From assembly GCA_963623485.1 (NCBI GenBank), contig CAVFLV010000014.1, positions 6,461-70,460 on the forward strand: 64,000 bases of DNA. Reading direction: 5' to 3'. This DNA comes from a bacterium. GTDB taxonomy: Bacteria > Patescibacteriota > Saccharimonadia > Saccharimonadales > Saccharimonadaceae. The notes under the pieces were generated by a model, which saw only the letters and a list, made by a program, of their open reading frames with translations, was not told where the DNA came from and did not search any database. This document shows, one piece after another, positions 2,379 to 27,181 of this stretch (its first letter is position 1; every line of letters begins with the position of its first letter). The position numbers and the translations under genes were made by a program.

Positions 2379-4268
2379 TTATTCGCCGGCGAGGCAGCGG
2401 ACTGGTAGTCCGGCGCGTTTGTAATTGTTGTCGGATGTAGCTACTATAGATTCGACAATAGTAAAGGTTATTGCAAAATTAATATATTTTCCGTTCGACC
2501 AGCGTGTCCAGACCGATGAAGCTTTTGATTTGTTGTACGGTCCATAGTTGGTATATGTTCCAGAATATACAAAATTGTTTGGAAATTGACGAAGCCGAGC
2601 AGACATTACCGCTCCAGTCGGGGTTCCACTAGCATCAAATGTGTCGGTAGTATCGCCGCTCATTGAAGCAGTTAATTCACGGGTTTTGTATACTGAATCG
2701 CGGTAACTGCCCGGCAACTTCCAATTAGCCGGGCAGATATCGCCAGCTACTGAACTGGACGTACTATATTTTCCGTTCCCCGCCGTCGCCGAATACCAGT
2801 TATAGTAATTCCCATAAGCATACCAGTTTCCTTCGTAAGTTCCGTCCATTTTTAGGTTATCCGTGTTAAGCATGGATTGATCGATACATTCCGCAGTGTC
2901 CTCGCTGCACCACGAACTCGAACTCGCCGAAAGCACAAAACCTTCAGCCGGGTTGTGAGTATTTGCGCTCGTGATTGTCGCCGTGTTGTCTAGTCGCAAG
3001 TTCTCCAGCATCCAACAATTCCCGTCCGTTAGCCTCGCCACGGCGTAGACATCTCCGTCACGCTCGTCTTCTAGAGCGATGAGTGAATCCGCGGAGACTG
3101 TGAAGTTGGTAGAAGTAGTCACCGAGGTTGTGCCGGACAGGTTAGTAGTGGTAGTTGCGGTGCTACTGTAGACCGTTGCGGTAAGTTCAGCGGAACAAAC
3201 GCTGGCCGAGAAAGTCTGCATCGTGTACTCCGTAGATTTCGGCAGCCACACCGCGTAAAGTGTGATGCCATCATCAGAAAGATTGGAAAAAGTGATATCT
3301 TCCATCGGTCCATAAATCGTATCAGTCCCAATCACCGGGTTTTGTTTCGTGCTCCAGCCGATGAAAGCGTAGCCGCTGCGTTTAAAGTTATATGCCTGAA
3401 GCGTTGCCGAGGTCGCGTAGGTAATTTCCTGAGGTGCCATCGTCCCCTCCACCGTGTCCGTGCCGGCATTACTATTATAATAAATGTATTTTTTCTTTGT
3501 CCACTGCGCATAAAGCGTAAGCGTATTATCTGTAGAAGTTTGGTTGAGGGTAAACGTGCTACCTTTGGCATAACCCGTCCCGCTTCCGCTAGCGGTAGTA
3601 TTCCATCCGCTAAAATCATAACCGCTCCGCGTCGGGGAGTTGGAGCTAATCGTGACCGTTTCTGTCGCTGAGCTAGCGCTAACATTACTCGGCATCCCCG
3701 AAACCGTGTCCGTCCCCGCATTAGCATTATAGGTGATTTTATACGGCGTGGGGTTCGCGGTAACAGTAAAAACAAAAGTGTTAGAATAATCCCCAATCGC
3801 GGTATCAATATTCGCTCTTGCGCCGATCGAGACCGTATATTTATTATTGGTGGCACTAGAAACTGAATCCAAGGTACTACCACTAGTCGTCGGGGCGGGG
3901 AGATAATTTGTGTTCGCCGTGCTATTTAGCTTGCTTGGCTTGTAGCCCCACTTACCATTATACGCGCTGGTATCAAAAGTCTCCGCCGAAATCGCCGAGG
4001 AAATAGAGGTGAAACCCGTCGTGCCGGACGAGTTCTTGAGGTCCGTCGCGCTGCTAGCCTTGACTTTCAAAACATACCCCGCCGCATGAGTAGTAGAAAC
4101 ACTAATCGTCTCATCTCCCGAATCCGCAAACTTCCCCTCCGCCGACGGCGGCAGGTTAATCGTAGGATTACCCGAAACAGAAATCGTCAGCGACGACGCC
4201 GTGGCAAAAACTTTTCGCTCGCCAAAAATCATTGTTATTACCGGAACCAAAAATACCAGCGCGAGCAA
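2379..4268 (-). CDS. large surface protein, paralog B (same architecture as paralog A)
   Basis: 629-aa ORF from TTG 4268. The first ~240 aa are near-identical to paralog A (GKFADSGDETISVSTTHAAGYVLKVKASSAT..). Same repeat type. Divergent FISUMP-like C-terminus (DGNCWMLENLRL, CPANWKLPG). Confidence 0.8.
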   Translation of the reverse strand: MLALVFLVPVITMIFGERKVFATASSLTISVSGNPTINLPPSAEGKFADSGDETISVSTTHAAGYVLKVKASSATDLKNSSGTTGFTSISSAISAETFDTSAYNGKWGYKPSKLNSTANTNYLPAPTTSGSTLDSVSSATNNKYTVSIGARANIDTAIGDYSNTFVFTVTANPTPYKITYNANAGTDTVSGMPSNVSASSATETVTISSNSPTRSGYDFSGWNTTASGSGTGYAKGSTFTLNQTSTDNTLTLYAQWTKKKYIYYNSNAGTDTVEGTMAPQEITYATSATLQAYNFKRSGYAFIGWSTKQNPVIGTDTIYGPMEDITFSNLSDDGITLYAVWLPKSTEYTMQTFSASVCSAELTATVYSSTATTTTNLSGTTSVTTSTNFTVSADSLIALEDERDGDVYAVARLTDGNCWMLENLRLDNTATITSANTHNPAEGFVLSASSSSWCSEDTAECIDQSMLNTDNLKMDGTYEGNWYAYGNYYNWYSATAGNGKYSTSSSVAGDICPANWKLPGSYRDSVYKTRELTASMSGDTTDTFDASGTPTGAVMSARLRQFPNNFVYSGTYTNYGPYNKSKASSVWTRWSNGKYINFAITFTIVESIVATSDNNYKRAGLPVRCLAGE

Positions 4269-24518: not shown

Positions 24519-25051
24519 TTAAAAATAGACCGTAGCGATATCGTCGTATTCGAACGCCGCCAATTCTCTAGCCGCCTCAGCAATCAGTTTTTTCACTCCA
24601 CTTATTTGTAAAATCTGATGATAATGCAAATGCCCAGGCTCGTCATCCCAAATTCTCATTTTTGAACACTTCTCAACTTTCAGCGATGTGCTATTAAACA
24701 TTTTTCTAAGTGCTTTTTCGGTATAAGTACTATGCGCAAATGCATCAGAACAATCAAACGTGTGAACAAAAAACTTGCCGCCATTTTTTAAATTTTTTTC
24801 TATGGTCTCAATAAGTTTCTCGGGGGTTTTAACTTCTGAATTACATAATTAGAGTAAACAAAATCGTAGGGACCGCTATTAGAAATATACAATTTATTTA
24901 AGTCTACACCATAAAGAATATCTACACCATCACATCTACACCCGAGATCTTCTAGGCCTTTAATATCAACCCTGCTTCCACATCCTAAATCTAGGGCCTT
25001 TCCGGGCTTCTCGAACTCTTGCATGATATATTCTTTTAGTTCTGGATTCAT
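24519..25051 (-). pseudogene. class I SAM-dependent methyltransferase, interrupted by a frameshift in a C5 run
   Basis: The 83-aa fragment has motif I LDLGCGS and ends ..QKLKPPRNLLRP*. Shifting frame at the ccccc run (plus-strand ggggg at 24822-24826) continues PEKLIETIEKNLKNGGKFFVHTF.. into the 60-aa ORF 24519..24701. A C6 run would restore one ORF of ~175 aa. Confidence 0.7.
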
Positions 25052-25065
25052 GTATTCATTGTATC

Positions 25066-25097
25066 ATAAAAAGACCCCGAATTTTGAATTCGGGGTC
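25066..25097 (-). terminator. intrinsic terminator after the radical SAM gene
   Basis: Perfect 11-bp stem gaccccgaatt/aattcggggtc with a 3-nt loop, followed on the minus strand by TTTTT. Confidence 0.8.
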
Positions 25098-25104
25098 GTG
25101 TTTA

Positions 25105-26190
25105 TCATATCCAACATTCCGGATCTTCGCCCATAATGTCGCCACTAAACGCAAGTGCTCTCGCGCGACAACCGCAACACGAATATTTTTTCGAACAATC
25201 AGAACACTTACCATGAAGACTCATATCGAGGAACATCTTCGTTATCTTATTTTGCCGATATCTATCCGCGATTTCTTCGATTGTGAGATCGAAAACGTTC
25301 ATCATTGGGACTTCAAGAAGCGAACATGGAGTCATAACGCCATCGGAATTCACGTTAAAAGAGACAGTGCCGGCATGACAACCGTCCATGACAATTTCCG
25401 ACTCAGACGTCGGCTCATCACTCGCTCCTCTCACCAAACATTTTAATGGGTCGTTTGTAGTGACATTTATGTGTGGATACTTTTTCTTGAGATAATAAAT
25501 ATTTTCTAAAAATTGCTTTTTTTGACTACTCGTCATCCACATGTGATTATTATCTTTTGCTTTTCCGGAATAAATTACGGATGTGAAACTTATTCTTTTA
25601 CATTCTAATTCATCAGCTAAAGCAACACGTTCTACCATTTCGTCTATCACATCCGGCATAACGACGGTTTTCATAGAAGGAACGAGTTTTTCGCTCTTCC
25701 TGTTTGCAATCATCGTTAATGCAGAGGTTGCCTTATCAAAAGCTCCTTTATATCCACGAAAAGCATCGTGTGCTGCCGAATTCACAGAGTCAATACTAAC
25801 CGACAGCATGAGTCTTTCGAATGCCAATGATTCGAAAAAATCAAGCAGACCCTCTGTTATTAGTGAGCCATTCGTGGTTATAGTCAAGTAATCAGCGCCG
25901 TTGCTTCTGAGAATTTTTACGACTTCGCGAAAATTTTCATGCAACAACGGCTCTCCACCAGAAATGGTCACTTCTTTATAATCTGGACTATATTTTCTCG
26001 CAAACTTCATAATTTTCAAGATTTCGCTTAATGGCATGTCTTTTCTTGGCATGTTACTTGCCCTACAATGCGCACAGCTCATATTACAACGCCCCGTAAT
26101 TTCTATCTGTATAGGCCCAAGCTCGATATCATATATAGCTGACTCAGTTTCCACTTCAAGATATTTATAACTCTCATTACAGCAATGCAT
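25105..26190 (-). CDS. radical SAM enzyme with C-terminal SPASM domain (peptide-maturase-like)
   Basis: GRCNMSCAHC (CX3CX2C) at residues 34-43. GGEPLL. C-terminal GCHAGTVSFNVNSDGVMTPC and KCSDCSKKYSCCGC ... DPEC Cys array. AGGAGGG SD before the ATG. Confidence 0.85.
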   Translation of the reverse strand: MHCCNESYKYLEVETESAIYDIELGPIQIEITGRCNMSCAHCRASNMPRKDMPLSEILKIMKFARKYSPDYKEVTISGGEPLLHENFREVVKILRSNGADYLTITTNGSLITEGLLDFFESLAFERLMLSVSIDSVNSAAHDAFRGYKGAFDKATSALTMIANRKSEKLVPSMKTVVMPDVIDEMVERVALADELECKRISFTSVIYSGKAKDNNHMWMTSSQKKQFLENIYYLKKKYPHINVTTNDPLKCLVRGASDEPTSESEIVMDGCHAGTVSFNVNSDGVMTPCSLLEVPMMNVFDLTIEEIADRYRQNKITKMFLDMSLHGKCSDCSKKYSCCGCRARALAFSGDIMGEDPECWI

Positions 26191-26211
26191 ATTCGTCCCT
26201 CCTTTAAAAGT

Positions 26212-26242
26212 GATGGGGCGGTGTAAAAAACATCACCCCATC
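26212..26242 (-). promoter_or_regulatory. hairpin (putative attenuator/leaky terminator) between the mini-ORF and the radical SAM gene
   Basis: 12-position stem gatggggcggtg/catcaccccatc with 1 mismatch and 1 wobble. Loop is U-rich. Followed on the minus strand by CUUUUAAAGGAGGG. Confidence 0.55.
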
Positions 26243-26259
26243 TGGTTGTCTATTGATTT

Positions 26260-26319
26260 TTATTCACAACGACAACAGCTACCTTTTCCGATCCTTACAC
26301 GAAAACGACGTTTCTTCAT
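26260..26319 (-). CDS. 19-aa Cys-rich basic peptide MKKRRFRVRIGKGSCCRCE (candidate radical-SAM substrate/precursor); not in the supplied ORF track
   Basis: Hand translation of the minus strand: atg aag aaa cgt cgt ttt cgt gta agg atc gga aaa ggt agc tgt tgt cgt tgt gaa taa. Preceded by AGGAGGTG and 6 nt. 69 nt upstream of the rSAM start on the same strand. Confidence 0.6.
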   Translation of the reverse strand: MKKRRFRVRIGKGSCCRCE

Positions 26320-26381
26320 ATTTATCACCTCCTTTCTTCTTAAAGTACTGACCCGTCTGCTATATAAACGAACCTATTTTT

Positions 26382-26410
26382 ATGATAGCATACTTTTGCT
26401 ATTTTTGCAA
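26382..26410 (-). promoter_or_regulatory. putative promoter of the mini-ORF/radical SAM operon
   Basis: Minus strand TTGCAA-N17-TATCAT, about 60 nt upstream of the mini-ORF. Confidence 0.5.
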
Positions 26411-26575
26411 ATATTCCGTATTATCTCACAACCTTTGCAATATAAAATGACAACCTCTTGCCATCAAAATAGGTGGGCCCTATACTTATATCAATATCAC
26501 CTAATAAAAGGAGGACCTGTCTATGTTATATCGAAAATGTTAACTATAAAAAAGCGGTTATGAGAGTTGTATGAG

Positions 26576-27181
26576 CTATAACTGCGTCCGATTTTCGAGC
26601 GCCGCGCTCAAAGTAATTTGGTCAGCATAGGACAAATCCACCCCGAGCGGCAATCCTCGCGCTAGCCGAGTTAGCTTTAAATTCGGATTTTGCTCGTGGA
26701 GCATTTTTTCGAGTAATAAGGCCGTCGATTCCCCCTCTACCGACGGGTTTGTTGCGATAATCACTTCTTTCACGTTGTCGTTATTGACGCGCTTAATCAG
26801 CTCGCCAATATGCAGTTGCTCCGGCGTGATGCCGTCAATCGGCGACACCGCCCCACCTAGCACATGATAAGTTCCTTTAAAATTATGCGTCTGCTCTATC
26901 GCGTAAATATCTAACGGCTCCTCCACGACCAGCACCGTCGACTTGTCGCGCGTCGGGTCGGCATAAAACGGCGATACCTCGTCCTCCGCGTCAATCAACG
27001 CGAAAGTTACTGGGCAAGATTTTAGCCCTGCGTGTAGCCCCGAAATCGCCTCCGCGATATTCTCCGCGATTTTCGGATTAGAGCGAAACAAAAAGTAGGC
27101 ATACCGTTCCGCCGTTTTCGGACCTACTCCAGGTAGCCGCCCCAGCGCCTCAATTACCTCCGCCAACGCTTGTGGTAACAT
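26576..27181 (-). CDS. recR: recombination protein RecR
   Basis: LGRLPGVGPKTAERYAYFL HhH motif and Toprim region VIIATNPSVEGE. The usual C4 zinc finger is absent. Confidence 0.9.
   Translation of the reverse strand: MLPQALAEVIEALGRLPGVGPKTAERYAYFLFRSNPKIAENIAEAISGLHAGLKSCPVTFALIDAEDEVSPFYADPTRDKSTVLVVEEPLDIYAIEQTHNFKGTYHVLGGAVSPIDGITPEQLHIGELIKRVNNDNVKEVIIATNPSVEGESTALLLEKMLHEQNPNLKLTRLARGLPLGVDLSYADQITLSAALENRTQL

Follow-up and report, generated by a model that had tools for sequence, protein, structure and literature searches.

A 19-codon gene beside a radical-SAM/SPASM gene in Saccharimonadaceae: a probable peptide precursor and its enzyme

Organization of the locus

The window, a stretch of 64,000 nucleotides (nt) of contig CAVFLV010000014.1 (assembly GCA_963623485.1) from a bacterium of the Saccharimonadaceae, carries on its minus strand a 19-codon gene directly upstream of a gene encoding an enzyme with radical S-adenosylmethionine (rSAM) and SPASM domains. 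According to the comparative analysis described below, the encoded peptide is probably the substrate, i.e., the precursor, of the adjacent enzyme. The genes and signals of the pair are as follows.

26260..26319, minus strand: peptide gene, 19 codons plus stop, product MKKRRFRVRIGKGSCCRCE (translated from DNA; start ATG 26319-26317, stop TAA 26262-26260)
26326..26333, minus strand: Shine-Dalgarno sequence AGGAGGTG of the peptide gene (read from DNA; 6-nt spacer ATAAAT to the ATG)
26382..26410, minus strand: sigma-70-type promoter TTGCAA-17-TATCAT with TG extension (consensus scan)
26212..26242, minus strand: GC-rich hairpin GAUGGGGUG...CCGCCCCAUC, followed by ACUUUU (predicted fold)
26197..26204, minus strand: Shine-Dalgarno sequence AAGGAGGG of the rSAM gene (read from DNA)
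25105..26190, minus strand: radical-SAM/SPASM enzyme gene, 361 amino acids (aa) (Pfam Radical_SAM and SPASM)

The peptide MKKRRFRVRIGKGSCCRCE has Lys or Arg at seven of its first 12 residues and ends in SCCRCE, which holds three Cys. It is composed of a basic N-terminal part, a conserved stretch RVRIGKGS that may represent the recognition strand of the peptide, an invariant Cys15, and a C-terminal CxxCE (Cys15-X3-Glu19). A GTG at 26328, which would give a 22-aa reading, sits within the Shine-Dalgarno sequence, and the ATG at 26319 was therefore taken as the start. A first-pass annotation of this DNA had described an unannotated 19-codon open reading frame (ORF) of this composition, with a Shine-Dalgarno sequence 6 nt before its ATG and a promoter upstream. 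All of these elements are present in the DNA, the promoter at 26410-26382, and the ORF is absent as a called gene from a public assembly with an identical enzyme and the same neighbors. The placement of the ORF 69 nt from the rSAM gene (ATG at 26190) on the same strand was also correct, although the strand itself, minus, had been left unsaid.

The position and hexamers of the promoter are kept in five related Saccharibacteria loci (L001-L004, L059), in which the flanking DNA diverges, and this promoter would drive the peptide-rSAM operon. The same-strand genes upstream of the peptide gene are recR and ybaB. A second copy of the module was not found within the 64-kb window.

Linkage of the peptide to the enzyme family

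To examine the family, DNA upstream of the enzyme gene was read in 72 genomic loci encoding enzyme relatives, of which 57 offered usable upstream DNA. A small ORF on the same strand was present upstream of the enzyme in about 55 of these 57 loci, at a gap of 7-213 nt (mostly 40-110 nt). The best-scoring start was usually preceded by a 5-6/6 match to AGGAGG, a score that helped to pick the start and is thus not independent evidence of Shine-Dalgarno conservation.

The nearest enzyme-bearing loci belong to Saccharibacteria, in line with the first-pass annotation's choice of Patescibacteria for further searches. Where the enzyme is at least about 45% identical to that of the window, the peptide ends in ...[KR]V[KR]IGKGSCxxC[DE]; the hosts of this type are Saccharibacteria, Paceibacteria, Moranbacteria, Falkowbacteria, Campbellbacteria, and metagenome-assembled genomes (MAGs) labeled Woesearchaeota and Nanoarchaeota. 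A distant clade (35-42% enzyme identity) has a peptide ending in ...KN[ST]CxT[SC]GS[YFW]K and occurs in small-genome gut Bacilli and in MAGs labeled Rickettsiales, Bdellovibrionales, and others. Here and below, the taxon names of DPANN, Mollicutes-like Bacilli, Rickettsiales, and Bdellovibrionales loci are MAG labels as deposited.

In an alignment of 46 peptides, the first Cys (C15) is the sole invariant residue besides Met1. Ser often stands at the second CxxC position, and many relatives have a single Cys. The first-pass annotation had regarded all three Cys as candidate crosslink donors or metal ligands. Only the first Cys is invariant, and the frequent Ser at the second CxxC position weakens both metal binding and the use of all three Cys as donors.

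The linkage was also approached from the peptide, by searching metagenome contigs solely for DNA that encodes VRIGKGSCxxC[DE] followed by a stop. The motif-first scan yielded 55 matches; among the 49 with at least 300 nt of downstream sequence, an rSAM gene started less than 400 nt downstream on the same strand in 47. The gene-for-gene linkage between peptide and enzyme family thus holds from either search direction, and this family-wide linkage supports the earlier reading, in which the unannotated ORF encodes a peptide of precursor type for its rSAM neighbor.

In one locus, L064, where the rSAM match lies at 3001, a single ORF some 150 nt upstream has a tandem duplicated core (...VVRVDSGKVCRTCDYFGESNRNGKRVVRVNSGETVCRTCDFSKKSA), which resembles multi-core precursors of peptides that are made by the ribosome and modified after translation (RiPPs).

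The archaeal-labeled copies (L005, L019, L020, L029, L036, L047; Woesearchaeota or Nanoarchaeota) show 50-55% enzyme identity and share an identical VRIGKGSCxICD peptide with Patescibacteria. In most of these DPANN copies the Shine-Dalgarno match is weak, and the intergenic hairpin is absent as well from L019, L029, and L036. Retention of the peptide without the Shine-Dalgarno sequence and hairpin fits genuine archaeal hosts and, as far as the MAG labels hold, suggests a real inter-domain transfer between the candidate phyla radiation (CPR) and DPANN instead of mis-binning.

Selection on the peptide sequence

In six close Saccharibacteria relatives, the peptide is identical from K3 to the stop codon. 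All 11 variable nucleotide columns among them (11/11) are third codon positions with synonymous changes, and the flanking intergenic DNA is merely 10-23% invariant. The amino-acid sequence of the peptide is under purifying selection. However, the same 11 changes are silent in the antisense register too, so the third-position test alone does not fix the strand, which counts against the peptide gene as read here. The sense strand is instead fixed by codon-family switches across the family (Arg CGN/AGR, Ser AGY/TCC) and by the conserved start, Shine-Dalgarno sequence, and stop. Judged from these comparisons, the ORF is a genuine translated gene.

The first-pass annotation had named two patterns as contrary to its proposal, an ORF broken beside an intact rSAM gene and conservation as RNA structure only. 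A frameshift or stop was seen in no related locus, and the sole disruptions observed run the opposite way, with the rSAM gene split by a mobile element and the peptide ORF intact. As for RNA structure, conservation of the peptide is at the amino-acid level across phyla and includes the codon-family switches.

The intergenic hairpin

The hairpin that separates the two genes has a minimum free energy of -19.8 kcal/mol (z = -3.15), and compensatory changes were found in 7 of its 11 pairs among the six relatives. Intergenic regions of the family reach z < -2 in 77% of cases, with a T-run after several of those read. A search of region 25900-26700 against Rfam at E <= 1 gave no match. The hairpin is likely a leaky terminator or a transcript-stabilizing element between the two genes. 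In RiPP operons, a leaky terminator after the structural gene allows the precursor to exceed the enzyme; the layout of peptide gene, terminator-like hairpin, and enzyme gene is the same here, and a corresponding role in stoichiometry is presumed. Under this model, the promoter would give abundant peptide mRNA, and the hairpin would pass part of the transcripts into the enzyme gene.

The radical-SAM/SPASM enzyme

In Pfam, the enzyme scores 73 bits against Radical_SAM and 24.9 bits against SPASM, in each case exceeding the gathering threshold. The CX3CX2C motif (C34/C38/C41) is invariant in 24 homologues, as are eight Cys of the SPASM region (C250, C270, C288, C328, C331, C337, C340, and C358). 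The spacing of the latter (C250, C270-x12-G-x4-C288, C328-x2-C331-x5-C337-x2-C340, C358) is canonical plus one upstream Cys. By analogy with anaerobic sulfatase-maturating enzymes (anSMEs), these eight conserved Cys suggest two fully ligated auxiliary clusters.

None of the curated NCBIfam cutoffs was reached by the enzyme. The best matches were NirJ2 (132 bits) and AhbD (130 bits), against cutoffs of 500, and no other heme-pathway genes were seen among the annotated neighbors. Thioether-forming peptide maturases stand alongside heme-pathway enzymes among the best 25 NCBIfam matches, whereas neither the SCIFF-maturase nor the anSME model is among them. Scores of individual models against their cutoffs were 67/340 for PapB (NF047865), 61/300 for SkfB, 68/850 for AlbA, 75/625 for StsB, 71/265 for MftC, 81/381 for PqqE, and 93/650 for WgkB. 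A protein database search returned 2,260 matches at E <= 1e-10, among which members of other rSAM/SPASM families are to be expected; the best 120 of the 2,260 share 50-93% identity, and the few of these that are source-named are mostly Patescibacteria.

The AlphaFold (AF2) model of the enzyme has a pLDDT of 86. According to Foldseek, its nearest solved folds are SkfB, SuiB, anSMEcpe, PqqE, and CteB, which include peptide- or protein-modifying SPASM/twitch enzymes, and the one solved structure whose match spans both proteins completely is that of anSMEcpe (TM 0.68/0.68). By sequence, the neighbors with structures are SkfB, the best match, and CteB, a distant PDB match (E = 4e-12).

Many peptide maturases bind the leader of their substrate through a dedicated domain, the RiPP recognition element (RRE). 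The catalytic core of the window enzyme starts at about residue 28, preceded in the AF2 model by a short beta-hairpin only, which leaves no room for an RRE. This N-terminal beta-hairpin is conserved and acidic, with alternating Glu (LEVETE..IY[DE]IE..IQIEITG in the family; LEVETE..IYDIE..IQIEITG in the window). Across 50 loci, the mean net charge is -3.5 for the N-terminal 30 residues of the enzyme and +6.7 for the peptides. Enzymes paired with GKGSCxxC[DE] peptides also nearly always have a Cys at position 3 (MEC, MDC, HCC), before the acidic beta-hairpin; in the window, this region corresponds to rSAM residues 2-4 (26187-26179, minus strand). The Cys might serve as an additional ligand or as a thiol that partners with the substrate.

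Accessory genes

Two further features lie downstream of the rSAM gene.

25073..25097, minus strand: strong bidirectional intrinsic terminator 3' of the rSAM gene (11-bp stem, 6 GC pairs, T-run)
24519..25051, minus strand: small class-I SAM methyltransferase gene, frameshifted (Pfam Methyltransf_23)

The terminator is a perfect 11-bp palindrome with T-runs on both strands. It lies between the rSAM and methyltransferase genes, so that the latter probably has a transcript of its own or depends entirely on read-through. In the window, the methyltransferase gene is split into ORFs of 83 and 60 aa by a 1-nt deletion in a AAAACCCCC run (24822-24830, minus strand); relatives read through in an intact frame (...QKLK-TPE...), and tblastn matched the window in two frames. 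Either the homopolymer was misread in sequencing or the gene is truly inactivated. The methyltransferase is the usual companion of this peptide/rSAM clade, and an intact orthologue (Methyltransf_23, 155-178 aa) adjoins the rSAM gene in 22 of the 72 genomic loci and in many metagenome loci. It is found downstream, upstream, or on the opposite strand of the rSAM gene, and such variable placement with kept adjacency argues for a functional link of the methyltransferase to the module.

In the distant clade, the place of the methyltransferase is taken by Amidohydro_2, a kinase (APH-like or P-loop), and GNAT. The accessory set follows the peptide ending, with Methyltransf_23 beside GKGSCxxC[DE] and with Amidohydro_2/kinase/GNAT or threonyl-tRNA synthetase (ThrRS) beside CxT[SC]GS[YFW]K, as would be expected if the C-terminus is the tailored part. 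A ThrRS gene adjoins the peptide/rSAM pair in 12 distant-clade loci (L028, L030, L035, L037-L040, L042, L047, L056, L058, and L070). Two non-orthologous types of ThrRS (about 26% identity) are represented, some without an editing domain, and at least five arrangements differing in gene order or orientation were seen; in L037, for example, thrS, amidohydrolase, P-loop kinase, peptide, rSAM, and GNAT genes abut in this order. The ThrRS linkage points to a functional connection: the synthetase may confer resistance to a product that targets ThrRS, or the chemistry may depend on tRNA.

Proposed modification and alternative explanations

The best reading of the locus is that of a putative minimal, RRE-less rSAM-peptide module, which a small methyltransferase joins in relatives. 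We hypothesize, and do not report as a result, that the acidic N-terminal beta-hairpin of the enzyme captures the alternating basic/hydrophobic strand R-V-R-I-G-K of the peptide by beta-strand pairing, replacing an RRE. The 5'-deoxyadenosyl radical would then act at, or adjacent to, the invariant Cys15 and create one intramolecular thioether between the Cys15 sulfur and a carbon of the C-terminal residue. The methyltransferase, whose gene is frameshifted in the window, would subsequently add a methyl group. This would yield a short, cationic peptide closed into a small macrocycle at its C-terminus, acting inside the cell or on a host.

A single thioether from Cys15 is, tentatively, the chemistry that we favor. 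The grounds are the Cys-X3-Glu/Asp motif of the clade, the formation of thioethers by the nearest sequence relatives with structures, and the status of Cys as the sole invariant residue. Ranthipeptide synthases of the PapB type crosslink Cys-X3-Asp/Glu; the window peptide has Cys-X3-Glu (C15-C-R-C-E19), and most GKGSCxxC[DE] relatives have Cys-X3-Asp.

Several observations weigh against the proposal. In the distant clade, Cys-X3-Asp/Glu is replaced by C-x-T-[SC]-G, with Gly at +4, so the acidic side chain cannot be the acceptor if one reaction operates family-wide. All eight SPASM-region Cys are conserved, implying fully ligated clusters by the anSME analogy, whereas CteB-type thioether synthases leave a cluster site open for the substrate thiolate. 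The PapB and sactipeptide models score far below their NCBIfam cutoffs. No protease, transporter, or immunity gene was found near the module, which is unusual for an exported RiPP. Finally, we infer the chemistry from sequence.

The same substrate relation could serve another chemistry, namely an anSME-like oxidation of Cys via a thioaldehyde to formylglycine, or a different non-crosslinking reaction such as epimerization or C-methylation. Such a reaction would leave the peptide with a reactive aldehyde or a changed residue and no ring. The full-length structural match to anSMEcpe, which likewise has no RRE, is consistent with this explanation, as are the anSME-like spacing of the eight SPASM-region Cys (CX2CX5CX2C...C plus an upstream Cys) and the presence of exactly one invariant Cys in the peptides, with the +3 position alternating between Cys and Ser. 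However, the sulfatase motif C/S-x-P/A-x-R is absent, with no Pro/Arg at +2/+4 in the 46 peptides, the anSME model is missing from the best 25 NCBIfam matches, and the sequence neighbors with structures, SkfB and CteB, are both thioether formers. We therefore regard this chemistry as unlikely.

Alternatively, the peptide might not be an end product but the scaffold or precursor from which a small molecule or cofactor is made, as in pathways of the mycofactocin, pyrroloquinoline quinone (PQQ), or pearlin type. The rSAM enzyme would modify C-terminal residues, and the amidohydrolase, kinase, GNAT, or methyltransferase would trim or tailor the released fragment. In favor of such a route, the module has no exporter or immunity genes and is kept in very small genomes (Patescibacteria and labeled DPANN, Mollicutes-like Bacilli, Rickettsiales, and Bdellovibrionales); the distant clade consistently has Amidohydro_2, kinase, and GNAT, and, like those of MftA and PqqA, the conserved positions are all confined to the very C-terminus. 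Yet the module is dispensable in some strains, with the rSAM gene split in several Saccharibacteria and the methyltransferase gene frameshifted in the window. Moreover, the methyltransferase is the sole partner in the clade of the window, which has no peptidase or amidohydrolase, and the MftC and PqqE models are far below cutoff. This makes the scaffold route doubtful.

In a wider sense, the module may be an ancient, horizontally mobile, and so far unrecognized system specific to reduced-genome symbionts, with a new Cys-derived chemistry that needs no RRE, protease, or exporter and an action on translation or on the host. This speculation, to which we give a low probability, spans Patescibacteria and MAG-labeled DPANN, Mollicutes-like Bacilli, Rickettsiales, and Bdellovibrionales. 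The linkage of ThrRS, GNAT, amidohydrolase, and kinase genes in the distant clade would fit a ThrRS-directed (microcin-C-like) toxin/immunity system or tRNA-dependent tailoring.

Three explanations that dispense with modification of the peptide are disfavored by the conservation pattern. An unmodified CxxC micro-protein binding a metal or Fe-S cluster, whether a helper of the rSAM clusters or a small zinc knuckle that binds nucleic acid and is related to ribosomal protein L36, is suggested by the CxxC pair and the very basic sequence, and by what we take to be a superficial likeness to the N-terminus of L36 (KVR...C..C). In many members, however, the second Cys is Ser and CxxC is not conserved, and two Cys are incomplete for a tetrahedral site without dimerization. 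No L36 or zinc-ribbon match was listed at E <= 10, nor did Pfam give one at E <= 0.01; the L36 relationship was rejected for want of a profile match, and a metal-binding role is very unlikely.

A regulatory leader peptide, in which ribosome stalling at Cys codons would control the hairpin by attenuation and thus rSAM expression, is brought to mind by the attenuator-like layout, with three Cys codons near the end of the ORF, a terminator-like hairpin 17 nt later, and then the gene. What is conserved, however, is RVRIGKGS and one Cys and no regulatory codon run, and many relatives are single-Cys. Folding of the whole leader gave no alternative antiterminator pairing between the ORF and a hairpin arm, and the attenuator model was rejected on this basis. 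In addition, the C-terminus co-varies with the accessory enzymes, and the archaeal-labeled copies that keep the peptide without the hairpin argue against a purely RNA-level or attenuation role. Regulation of this kind is highly improbable.

That the peptide ORF arises by chance, or that the real gene is the 117-aa ORF at 26210-26563 on the plus strand, which is antisense to the peptide gene, promoter, and hairpin and forms a shadow register matched at third positions, has almost no likelihood. The antisense ORF is open in the window, and the close-relative substitutions are synonymous in its register also. However, its length is not conserved among relatives, where the open stretch has anything between 21 and 232 codons and 10 of 55 loci have all three frames closed, which rules it out as a real gene. 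It also crosses the conserved promoter and hairpin, whereas the start, Shine-Dalgarno sequence, stop, and residues of the sense peptide persist across phyla.

Comparison with known systems

The PapB ranthipeptides (freyrasin) and SCIFF systems (CteB/Tte1186) have, as here, a short Cys-containing precursor encoded directly upstream of an rSAM/SPASM maturase. The Cys-X3-Asp/Glu of PapB-type systems occurs in the window peptide (CCRCE) and in most relatives (CxxCD), and CteB is among the nearest solved relatives of the window enzyme. In contrast to PapB and SCIFF, the window enzyme has no RRE or leader-binding domain and fails to reach the PapB cutoff, and its peptide has one motif copy with a single invariant Cys, not several copies. 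The lack of an acidic acceptor in the distant clade and the eight SPASM-region Cys, which suggest fully ligated clusters, are further differences; moreover, the SCIFF precursor has about 45 aa and six Cys, compared with 19 aa and three Cys here.

Among the sactipeptide synthases, SkfB is the best solved match by sequence and fold; in these systems, the precursor gene likewise lies upstream, and Cys is the thioether donor. Unlike the window enzyme, SkfB, AlbA, and StsB carry an N-terminal RRE, and their precursors are 40-60 aa long with leaders and accompanied by export and immunity genes. The anSMEcpe/AtsB enzymes share the size and layout of the window enzyme (rSAM core plus SPASM, no RRE) and give the best full-length superposition. 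They have two fully Cys-ligated auxiliary clusters and act on a single Cys or Ser. However, the anSME substrate is a folded sulfatase with CxPxR, whereas here it would be a free 19-aa peptide that is encoded adjacently and has no such motif.

Very short peptides with conservation confined to the C-terminus and processing by an rSAM/SPASM enzyme are also known from MftA/MftC and PqqA/PqqE, and PqqE is a close structural neighbor. The roles of mycofactocin and PQQ are physiological, not antibiotic. The MftC and PqqE cutoffs are not reached, and neither a PqqD/MftB chaperone, a peptidase, a GVY ending, nor an E-x3-Y motif occurs here; in contrast to mycofactocin and PQQ, the window-type module is dispensable in some strains. 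Finally, the streptococcal RaS-RiPPs (WgkB/tryglysin) combine very short precursors with a single rSAM/SPASM enzyme and a small, modified C-terminal motif, and WgkB is among the better NCBIfam matches (93 bits), although its cutoff of 650 is not attained. RaS-RiPP operons differ in having Rgg/SHP quorum sensing and exporters, and their crosslinks are C-C and not Cys-centered.

Novelty and distribution

When six peptides of the family (22-33 aa), one of them a close 22-aa variant of that in the window, were scanned against Pfam and NCBIfam, nothing relevant emerged, in keeping with the statement of the first-pass annotation that no known precursor family could be recognized. A profile search with the peptide alignment against 5.8 billion proteins recovered only 15 called copies, named at most "hypothetical protein". 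No description of the peptide/rSAM pair was found in the full-text literature searched, the coverage of which leaves most subscription journals outside. As judged by sequence, the peptide probably represents a new precursor family within the known rSAM/SPASM-modified ribosomal peptides, unusually minimal and RRE-less.

The distribution among reduced-genome symbionts, spanning two domains by MAG label, is striking. To our knowledge, Patescibacteria and DPANN archaea are regarded as nearly devoid of secondary metabolism, and their small proteins are mostly unannotated. A 19-aa gene missed by gene callers forms half of a conserved module common to Patescibacteria and archaeal-labeled loci, and short-ORF-aware annotation is needed beside orphan rSAM/SPASM genes. 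With a chemically synthesizable peptide and an enzyme of 361 aa, the two- or three-gene system is tractable and could reveal new radical-SAM peptide chemistry or RRE-independent substrate recognition. It is also a candidate effector or cofactor for epibiotic Saccharibacteria in animal and human microbiomes.

Disruption by mobile elements

A tblastn search of phage and plasmid collections with the enzyme (E <= 1e-20) gave no match, and a mobile-element origin of the module was rejected. In several Saccharibacteria loci (L059, on the same contig as L123; L091; L094; and L087), the rSAM gene is split after residue ~108, at the same site, and the peptide ORF is intact. The inserts are 2.5-3.3 kb or larger and carry genes for a large serine recombinase, a MobA/MobL relaxase, SnoaL-like and SAP-domain proteins, or an IS110 transposase. 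The rSAM gene thus seems to be the attachment site of an integrative mobilizable element. The module is dispensable in some strains, which favors an accessory role over an essential cofactor.

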